Shown: one piece after another, positions 7,453-8,396 of the stretch | Layout: every line of letters starts with the position of its first letter | Numbering within the stretch: the stretch's first letter is position 1 | Virus record (IMG/VR): IMGVR_UViG_2529292886_000013 | DNA from: a virus | Taxonomy: Duplodnaviria > Heunggongvirae > Uroviricota > Caudoviricetes | Length of the DNA stretch: 9,895 nt | Strand: one strand, 5' to 3' | Program-made: the position numbers and the translations under genes | The notes under the pieces: generated by a model | Databases searched by the model: none | The model's input: the letters and a program-made list of their open reading frames with translations, nothing else | What the model was told of the DNA's origin: nothing

Positions 7453-7560
7453 CTGTTCATATCCTCATAGATAAAAAATCGCCTTCACACTGGAGGGCAA
7501 AGAAGATTTCCAATAATCAGAACAAGTCGGCTCCTGTTTAGTTACGAGCGACATTGCTCC

Positions 7561-7588
7561 GTGTATTCACTCGTTGGAATGAATACAC
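7561..7588. repeat. Perfect 9-bp inverted repeat (stem-loop) upstream of ea10
   Basis: GTGTATTCA (7561-7569) / TGAATACAC (7580-7588) with a 10-nt loop; a T-rich tract follows on the plus strand. Possible terminator or processing structure. Confidence 0.45.
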
Positions 7589-7611
7589 AGTGCAGTGTTT
7601 ATTCTGTTGTT

Positions 7612-7643
7612 TATGCCAAAAATAAAGGCCGACTATGCGGCCT
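7612..7643 (-). terminator. Putative intrinsic terminator (minus strand) directly after the 43-codon ORF
   Basis: Stem AGGCCG (7626-7631) / CGGCCT (7638-7643) with loop ACTATG. On the minus strand it is followed by UUAUUUUUGG (plus-strand CCAAAAATAA, 7616-7625). Confidence 0.4.
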
Positions 7644-7647
7644 GAAA

Positions 7648-7779
7648 TTACTTAACCAATGATGCTGCATATTCGATAAGGTAAAGCTTTGGGGCCAGCC
7701 AAATTTTTAACCAAGTCATATTGGTTACTACACCAATAATAAAAATCCCCCACAGAGTCAAAACTCCAACCAATGGCAT
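7648..7779 (-). CDS. Hypothetical 43-aa hydrophobic peptide in the non-lambda junction segment (speculative)
   Basis: Hand translation: MPLVGVLTLWGIFIIGVVTNMTWLKIWLAPKLYLIEYAASLVK. Bounded by an in-frame stop upstream and TAA at 7648-7650, 4 nt before a stem-loop terminator. No convincing Shine-Dalgarno or promoter found. Confidence 0.25.
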   Translation of the reverse strand: MPLVGVLTLWGIFIIGVVTNMTWLKIWLAPKLYLIEYAASLVK

Positions 7780-7783
7780 GATA

Positions 7784-8396
7784 AGAAGAGCGAGATTACA
7801 AAGTTACCCGTCAAACGGTGCAATGAAGCCAAGTTAGAACTCGTCAGAATGAATATTATCAAGCAGCAAGGCGGCATGTTTGGACCAAATAAAAACATCT
7901 CAGAATGGTGTATCCCTCAAAACAGGGGGACACAAAAGACACTATTACAAAAGAAAAAAGAAAAGATTATTCGTCAGAGAATTCTGGCGAATCCTCTGAC
8001 CAGCCAGAAAACGACCTTTCTGTGGTGAAACCGGATGCTGCAATTCAGAGCGGCAGCAAGTGGGGGACAGCAGAAGACCTGACCGCCGCAGAGTGGATGT
8101 TTGACATGGTGAAGACTATCGCACCATCAGCCAGAAAACCGAATTTTGCTGGGTGGGCTAACGATATCCGCCTGATGCGTGAACGTGACGGACGTAACCA
8201 TCGCGACATGTGTGTACTGTTCCGCTGGGCATGCCAGGACAACTTCTGGTCCGGTAACGTGCTTAGCCCGGCCAAACTCCGCGACAAGTGGACCCAGCTC
8301 GAAATCAACCGTAACAAGCAACAGGCAGGCATGATAGCCAGCAAACCAAAACTCGACCTGACAAACACAGACTGGATTTACGGGGTGGATCTATGA
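7784..8396 (+). pseudogene. O: Replication initiator O, 5'-truncated and internally frameshifted
   Basis: Homology to lambda O begins mid-gene (SEITKLPVKRCNEAKLELVRMNIIKQQGGMFGPNKNISEWCIPQN) with no start codon or upstream O sequence. That frame stops at 8026-8028. The C-terminal domain (YPSKQGDTKDTITKEKRKDYSSENSGESSDQPEND...TNTDWIYGVDL) is in a different frame, open from 7905. Confidence 0.8.
7912..7975. promoter_or_regulatory. ori: Remnant of the lambda-type replication origin: a single iteron plus the adjacent AT-rich tract
   Basis: Only one O-binding iteron (ATCCCTCAAAACAGGGGGA, 7912-7930), followed by the A-rich segment ACAAAAGACACTATTACAAAAGAAAAAAGAAAAGATTATTCG. Lambda carries four tandem iterons here (established knowledge). 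Confidence 0.6.

Follow-up and report, generated by a model that had tools for sequence, protein, structure and literature searches.

Sp3, the lambda-like prophage of strain Sakai that corresponds to CP-933K or O-island 36 of EDL933, lacks CI and Cro (the repressor and anti-repressor), and it is the only lambdoid Sakai prophage without functional O/P (Asadulghani et al. 2009; PMC2669165). Neither circularisation/excision nor replication or packaging was seen for this element (PMC2669165). Here, we show that the element in a 9,895-nucleotide stretch of DNA filed as IMG/VR virus record IMGVR_UViG_2529292886_000013 (the window, by which we mean this stretch at its full length) is a lambda-like prophage of the Sp3/CP-933K lineage of E. 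coli O157:H7, located at attB-lambda. Between its ea10 homologue and the replication gene O, the immunity and early-control region is missing, and O itself carries a further lesion. Very probably, the locus is the genuine scar of two deletions in a decaying prophage.

The missing control region between ea10 and O

Alignment to lambda (NC_001416) and to related genomes defined the breakpoints to the base. Window 3931-7636 corresponds to lambda 30380-34087, window 7789-7927 to lambda 38911-39050 and window 7911-9895 to lambda 39100-41084. Nothing in the window corresponds to lambda 34088-38910 (4,823 bp: ral, sieB, N, rexB, rexA, cI, cro, cII, and O codons 1-75), and this agrees with a first-pass annotation, made from the sequence alone, that had described the control region between ea10 and O as missing and put its length in lambda at about 4.8 kb. 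Measuring the loss against lambda was nevertheless only partly apt: the lambda block is indeed absent, but the true parent was of the LSU61/O55:H7 type, and relative to that parent the loss amounts to 3,745 bp.

The nearest matches of the window are prophages at the ybhC site, namely those of O157:H7 LSU61 (99.8%), of O55:H7 DEC5B, CB9615, and others, and of CH427, with 98.1-99.8% identity over the whole window length. In these intact relatives, the same sequence spans about 13.7 kb, compared to 9.9 kb in the window. The prophages of LSU61, DEC5B/CB9615, and CH427 are collinear with the window on both sides of the junction, but they keep a 3,745-bp block and a 67-bp iteron segment, both of which the window lacks. 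Breakpoints were determined by local BLAST of the window against LSU61, whose coordinates are given here in the numbering of L002. Window 1-7789 equals LSU61 201-7995 at 99.8% identity, window 7789-7925 equals 11741-11875, and window 7911-9895 equals 11930-13914. The interval and its right flank are composed as follows (window coordinates, strand in parentheses).

7453-7647 (minus): native ea10-orf149 spacer, 97.8% identical to lambda as far as 7636
7648-7789 (minus): 3' remnant of orf149, 47 codons including the stop, collinear with and 100% identical to LSU61 7854-7995
7789/7790 (no strand): junction of deletion 1, 3,745 bp missing relative to LSU61 (7996-11740), 1 bp (A) of microhomology
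7790-7925 (plus): O fragment, codon 76 to about 121, tail of the N-terminal iteron-binding domain (LSU61 alignment; Pfam Phage_rep_O positions 55-95 of 95; phrog_2365/277)
7905-8396 (plus): open reading frame (ORF) of 163 amino acids (aa) for the O C-terminal domain, about residue 139 to 299 (phrog_277 positions 149-317 of 318)
7911-7929 (plus): junction of deletion 2, 67-bp loss, crossover in the 13-bp TATCCCTCAAAAC common to iterons 1 and 4 of the replication origin (ori)

The join made by deletion 1 is effectively blunt, with a single A shared between the flanks; a CCAATGG motif near both breakpoints is out of register and was not counted as microhomology. As had been stated, no ORF of 60 aa or more exists in 7453-7904, where the only start-to-stop ORFs encode 43 aa (7648-7779, minus), 46 aa (7758-7898, minus), and 59 aa (7849-8028, plus). 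The gap is not an empty spacer, though. Window 7637-7788 (152 bp) is non-lambda sequence and derives from the 3' end of orf149 of an LSU61/O55:H7-type parent, a gene for a 149-aa transmembrane protein (phrog_3054, without a Pfam family), the 5' two-thirds of which are deleted in the window. The 43-aa ORF of this remnant matches positions 100-137 of 137 of the phrog_3054 profile. Similarly, the first recognisable O codons had been placed at about 7784; an O remnant does lie there, but its first O-derived base is at 7789/7790, within codon 76. Intact orf149 occupies LSU61 7854-8303 and is found in the ral/sieB neighbourhood of such prophages as well as in phages Gally and HF4s; its last 46 residues are kept in the window.

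In LSU61, the interval corresponding to deletion 1 holds the 5' two-thirds of orf149, a ral remnant, N, hicAB, the repressor gene, cro, cII, and O codons 1-75, according to the LSU61 and CH427 annotation and Pfam. The lost N protein has 90 aa (Pfam N_peptide, 5.5e-32) and is accompanied by boxA/boxB (nutL); N_peptide was detected only in the deleted interval of the relative. The lost repressor belongs to the LexA family and combines HTH_3 with Peptidase_S24. A consensus scan placed a pL-like promoter, overlapped by operator-like repeats, at LSU61 9079-9051, inside the deleted interval, together with a pO/oop-like promoter and an oop-like terminator. There was no match for pR in the consensus scan of LSU61, and this promoter is placed by position in the deleted cI-cro spacer. 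Judged by its predicted gene content, the immunity of the true parent is not that of lambda, comprising orf149, ral, the 90-aa N, hicAB, a repressor with helix-turn-helix and S24 domains, cro, and cII versus sieB/rexAB/cI in lambda. Apart from this immunity type and the b-region/ea genes, which are unlike those of lambda, the window resembles lambda in its att core, in the cIII thermoregulator RNA, and in 97.7-97.9% nucleotide identity across int-xis, orf61-ea10, and the segment from the O remnant (O') through P and ren to ninB.

The intact relatives have two genes between N and the repressor gene: hicA, which encodes a toxin, and next to it a DUF1902 gene presumed to encode a HicB-type partner. 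This pair (LSU61 9293-9885; CH427, L001 10688-11280) represents a moron at the place that rexAB takes in lambda, and it was lost with the deleted block.

Searches of the gap gave no match to repressor, Cro, or N families in Pfam at E<=1 in ten of the eleven stop-to-stop segments of at least 25 aa within 7440-7915; the eleventh (31 aa, minus strand, 7614-7706) was left out of the Pfam scan. What the scans did match, with Pfam applied to these segments and PHROGs to the start-to-stop ORFs, were fragments of O and phrog_3054. Sub-threshold Pfam matches to SLH, McyA_C, and SAM_PNT, which are unrelated families, were attributed to chance. No Rfam family was found within 7453-7904 at E<=1. The operator motif of the parent, AAGTACATATYGTAYT, derived from the LSU61 pL/pR regions and sought with up to 3 mismatches, is absent from the whole window, as is the boxA/boxB nut motif of LSU61 nutL; a single boxB-like match with 2 mismatches inside exo is at chance level. 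The consensus scan revealed no promoter-like site on the plus strand of 7124-9895 and no sigma-70-like site on the minus strand to the right of 3635. None of the components of a functional lambdoid immunity and early-control region was found, whether a CI-type repressor with helix-turn-helix and S24 domains and Cro around operators, N with nutL/nutR, or pL/pR. The earlier statements that repressor, N, pL/pR, and operator-like or nut-like sequences are missing are thereby borne out, and Pfam disclosed no repressor/cro/N-type module in the ten segments scanned that could overturn them.

Deletion 2 had escaped the first-pass annotation. It leaves one hybrid iteron, at 7913-7929, where lambda has four annotated ones, and it keeps the AT-rich part of ori (about 7935-7975). 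A loss of 67 bp, not being divisible by three, shifts the O frame. The O fragment at 7790-7925 has neither a start codon nor a promoter of its own, and the 163-aa O' ORF begins at a fortuitous ATG formed at the iteron junction. In the closed genome of strain PV15-279, the equivalent of this ORF is given in RefSeq as a frameshifted, N-terminally incomplete replication protein. Full-length O (299 aa) is gone, as had been noted: codons 1-75 are deleted, a frameshift follows, and only fragments of 59 and 163 aa remain.

An identical 67-bp deletion between iterons 1 and 4 is present in a different prophage of E. coli S88 (at about 6125 of L009), N53, and N62. The S88 prophage (N53, N62) shares the single hybrid iteron TCCCTCAAAACAGGGGG and the frameshifted O with the window but differs from it in chromosomal position and in its complete immunity region (ral, sieB, N, cI, cro, and cII). 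Since the S88 lesion is carried by an immunity-complete prophage, the ori deletion either has more than one origin or was passed on by recombination, and it does not depend on the immunity deletion.

Orphaned operons and the predicted state of the prophage

The genes left behind on both sides of the scar are listed below.

1419-2489 (minus): int, full length, 356 aa (ORF list and protein comparison)
2467-2685 (minus): xis, 72 aa, identical to the LSU61 protein (ORF list and protein comparison)
4898-5578 (minus): exo, full length
5575-6360 (minus): bet, full length
6366-6662 (minus): gam, full length
6736-7011 (minus): frameshifted cIII fused in frame to kil, 91-aa ORF (ORF list and LSU61 comparison)
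7084-7452 (minus): ea10 homologue (DUF2528, phrog_646), last intact gene of the leftward operon, product identical to the LSU61 protein (ORF and PHROGs)
8393-9094 (plus): P, intact, identical to the LSU61 protein (ORF list and protein comparison)
9091-9381 (plus): ren, intact, identical to the LSU61 protein (ORF list and protein comparison)
9455-9895 (plus): ninB, compared at the DNA level, collinear with LSU61 with one base difference, at 9475 (ORF list and alignment)

The Exo, Bet, and Gam proteins are the same as in LSU61 and show 1-4 substitutions relative to lambda. With these full-length proteins and pL in the deleted block, the earlier description of an element that keeps int/xis and an intact exo-bet-gam module without its native promoter stands. 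The leftward operon as a whole is not intact, however, as a 1-bp deletion at 6932 relative to LSU61 abolishes the cIII frame after about codon 26 and fuses it to kil, the frame of which (6736-6879) is intact. The 91-aa cIII-kil gene is also called in the contigs SRR21350485 and SRR15808754, with matches to the Pfam families Lambda_CIII and Lambda_Kil. The cIII thermoregulator RNA is intact at 6966-7024 (Rfam RF01804, 88.5 bits) and represents the sole Rfam match at E<=1 in the whole window.

Terminator-like hairpins are kept on the minus strand at 7643-7626, 7060-7041, and 6712-6695, positions which we take to be those of the lambda tL2 cluster. The one at 7643-7626 lies in the ea10-orf149 spacer, is followed by a T run, recurs in LSU61 at 7849-7832, and occupies the place of the first member of the lambda tL2 cluster. 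Its fold is modest (-12.3 kcal/mol, z = -1.6), and it is called terminator-like by pattern and position, which is not proof of termination.

We propose that a single illegitimate recombination event with 1 bp of microhomology would have removed the 3,745 bp from orf149 through N/nutL, pL, the repressor gene, pR, and cII to O codon 75, and that a second, independent event between iteron 1 and iteron 4 would have removed 67 bp, leaving one iteron and a frameshifted O. By analogy with lambda, transcription would not be expected to reach gam-bet-exo or int-xis without pL, N, and nut, and pI would be unusable, given that it needs CII, which is deleted. P, ren, and ninB all lack pR, and without this promoter no expression of P, nin, or Q would be expected; without O and the iterons, there would be no replication. 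The outcome would be a prophage that is non-inducible, non-replicating, and immobile, confers no immunity, and is fixed in the chromosome, with int/xis, exo-bet-gam, and P-ren-nin orphaned. We hold this explanation, taken as a whole and including the origin of deletion 1 in one event, with high confidence. An inability to excise or replicate has been published for Sakai Sp3, which is a different allele from that of the window (PMC2669165). Silence is probable for the exo-bet-gam module, intact yet orphaned: pL, N, and nut have been lost, and terminators of the tL2 type persist upstream of gam-bet-exo.

Loss of cI alone would derepress kil, P, and lysis functions and kill the host. In the window, loss of the repressor would be survivable because deletion 1 also removes both divergent early promoters, so that nothing would be left to drive kil, P, Q, or lysis. 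Survivability of this kind would explain the extent of deletion 1, and the locus might serve as a textbook illustration of a lysogen that survives repressor loss only when the early promoters go too.

What the first-pass annotation had taken for a cryptic element is a defective prophage in which both an immunity lesion and replication lesions are mapped. It represents an earlier and less eroded stage of a prophage that is already known to have lost its control functions. The window allele provides a base-resolved intermediate of decay, from the intact prophages of O55:H7 and LSU61 through the window to the IS1203-truncated form in PV15-279, with Sakai representing a separate, larger deletion. 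For Sakai, the absence of repressor and replication genes from Sp3 is in the literature already. The finding is genuine but unremarkable and exemplifies a known mode of prophage decay. It reveals no new kind of system, opens no long-standing question, and is of small importance.

Authenticity of the junction and alternative explanations

In an independent assembly, the Logan contig SRR15808754 (L005), all 9,895 bases of the window are reproduced with 100% identity; the value for SRR21350485 (L004) is 99.97%, and about 20 other contigs resemble the window. Across public assemblies, 120 indexed blocks contain the 163-aa O' ORF. PV15-279, a beta-glucuronidase-positive, Stx2a-producing O157:H7 strain (PMC6256406), has a closed chromosome that matches window 1-5504 and 7644-9895 at 100% identity, including the junction of deletion 1; the long-read assembler Canu is among the references of the genome paper on this strain (PMC6256406). 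Among 5,426 complete E. coli genomes, the junction is found in one. An exact search with a junction-spanning 39-mer gave no match in GTDB species representatives, IMG/VR, or JGI metagenome contigs, and the junction is absent from phage records as well. This distribution fits a narrow, sublineage-specific allele, for which the 39-mer could be a lineage marker.

Among the alternatives, an origin of deletion 1 in an insertion sequence (IS), with insertion of IS629/IS1203 followed by IS-excision-associated deletion, fares best, although we consider it improbable. Deletions driven by the IS-excision enhancer are established in O157. In PV15-279, IS1203/IS629 replaces window 5505-7643 (L007 17970-20030), and its right end, at window 7643/7644, lies 145 bp from the junction, beside a 2.1-kb loss. 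However, neither the window nor SRR15808754 shows an IS remnant, an inverted-repeat end, or a target duplication at 7789/7790, and the IS in PV15-279 is a later, separate event, since the junction and the 145 bp to its left are unchanged in that strain.

It is very unlikely that the Red genes exo-bet-gam together with int/xis have been domesticated, in the sense that they are under selection and are expressed from a new or cryptic promoter, providing a recombination function that shuffles lambdoid prophages. In its favour, the Exo, Bet, Gam, Xis, P, and Ren proteins have their full length and do not differ from their counterparts in the intact relative. The window differs from LSU61 by only 8 substitutions in 7.8 kb, however, so that intactness is expected without selection and carries no signal. 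Moreover, sister strains are losing the module: exo is split in SRR21350485, IS1203 has removed everything from the exo N-terminus up to and including ea10 in PV15-279, and Sakai has a truncated bet. No promoter-like site was found upstream, and three terminators are kept without N or nut. Were selected Red and int/xis genes expressed through a cryptic promoter or upon induction of co-resident lambdoid prophages, for which we see very little prospect, the O157 lineage would gain a standing recombination function promoting prophage mosaicism.

A mis-assembly that wrongly joined two lambdoid contigs at about 7630-7790 is conceivable in O157, which has many near-identical segments; in O157-lineage genomes, the median number of places per genome that match window 7400-7950 is 2, with a maximum of 9, and no complete genome has the whole 7400-7950 configuration. 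The same junction in SRR15808754, SRR21350485, the roughly 20 contigs, and closed PV15-279 makes this highly implausible and disposes of the one artefact that the first-pass annotation had thought capable of undoing its reading. In addition, the flanks share only 1 bp, which is not a repeat boundary, and both are collinear with a single prophage at the same site.

Replacement of the immunity region by a compact, unrecognised control module of small ORFs or RNA in 7453-7904 is almost certainly not the case, for although small ORFs of 43-59 aa are present there, 7453-7789 is collinear with and 100% identical to intact prophages (the ea10-orf149 spacer and the orf149 3' end), 7790-7925 is O coding sequence, and the interval contains no Rfam match and, in the segments scanned, no Pfam regulator match. 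Laboratory recombineering constructs carry a cro-to-bioA deletion; an engineered recombineering prophage was rejected as a source of the window, as the isolates are natural and the deletion is unlike that of these constructs.

Several points weigh against the reading of the locus as a genuine two-deletion scar in a silent prophage. The junction is rare, and most of the evidence for its spread comes from short-read assemblies of a single sublineage. LSU61 is the nearest relative available and need not be the direct ancestor. The promoter scan relied on a crude consensus that weak or non-sigma-70 promoters could escape, and for exo-bet-gam, int/xis, and P alike, the probable silence is drawn from lambda biology.

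Chromosomal site, left arm, and sister alleles

The left end of the window comprises host and attachment sequences.

1-1284 (minus): ybhC, host gene, left chromosomal flank of attB-lambda, 427-aa ORF, annotated as ybhC in CH427, LSU61, PV15-279, and Sakai
1331-1345 (plus): attL core GCTTTTTTATACTAA, exact match, identical to the 15-bp lambda att core

Homology to lambda begins at window 1328, equal to lambda 27721 in the alignment to NC_001416. The presence of ybhC and an exact att core at the junction places the prophage at attB-lambda; its right end and ybhB lie beyond the window and were seen in PV15-279 and Sakai. The collinear early-left operon (int, xis, exo, bet, gam, kil, cIII, and ea10) and the replication and nin genes mark the element as a lambda-like prophage. 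In PV15-279 and Sakai, the cargo genes nleB2, nleC, nleH1 (nleH1-1), and nleD are located next to ybhB at the right end of the prophage, beyond the 9.9-kb window, which identifies the element as Sp3/CP-933K/O-island 36.

Sp3 of Sakai occupies the same site between ybhC and ybhB, and window 1-6248 matches Sakai at 99.7%. Sakai (L008 10355-11395), however, carries a larger, different deletion, which begins inside bet (window 6248) and extends to ninG, together with an int pseudogene. In the window, by comparison, int is intact, bet, gam, kil, ea10, O', P, ren, and ninB are retained, and there is a 5-bp deletion at 3255 that Sakai lacks.

Window 2963-3930 is non-lambda sequence, and its b-region and ea genes are unlike those of lambda. 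Here, the 5-bp deletion at 3255 relative to LSU61 frameshifts and splits a 200-aa hypothetical gene on the plus strand, the products of which are the plus-strand ORFs 3135-3311 and 3346-3732. The annotation of PV15-279 likewise shows a frameshift in this gene; Sakai (603 bp), CH427, and LSU61 have it intact.

Further lesions were observed in the sister strains. In SRR21350485 (L004 4940-5620), exo is split into ORFs of 48 and 169 aa, an independent lesion of the Red module in the same deletion background. In PV15-279, structural genes are deleted, and DUF1441 is fused to a tail-fibre C-terminus (L007 29878-30436). Compared with Int of lambda and with that of LSU61, Int of the window has a D28G substitution (window 2407) in its N-terminal arm-binding region; the Int accession of PV15-279 differs from that of LSU61, and PV15-279 is identical to the window across int.

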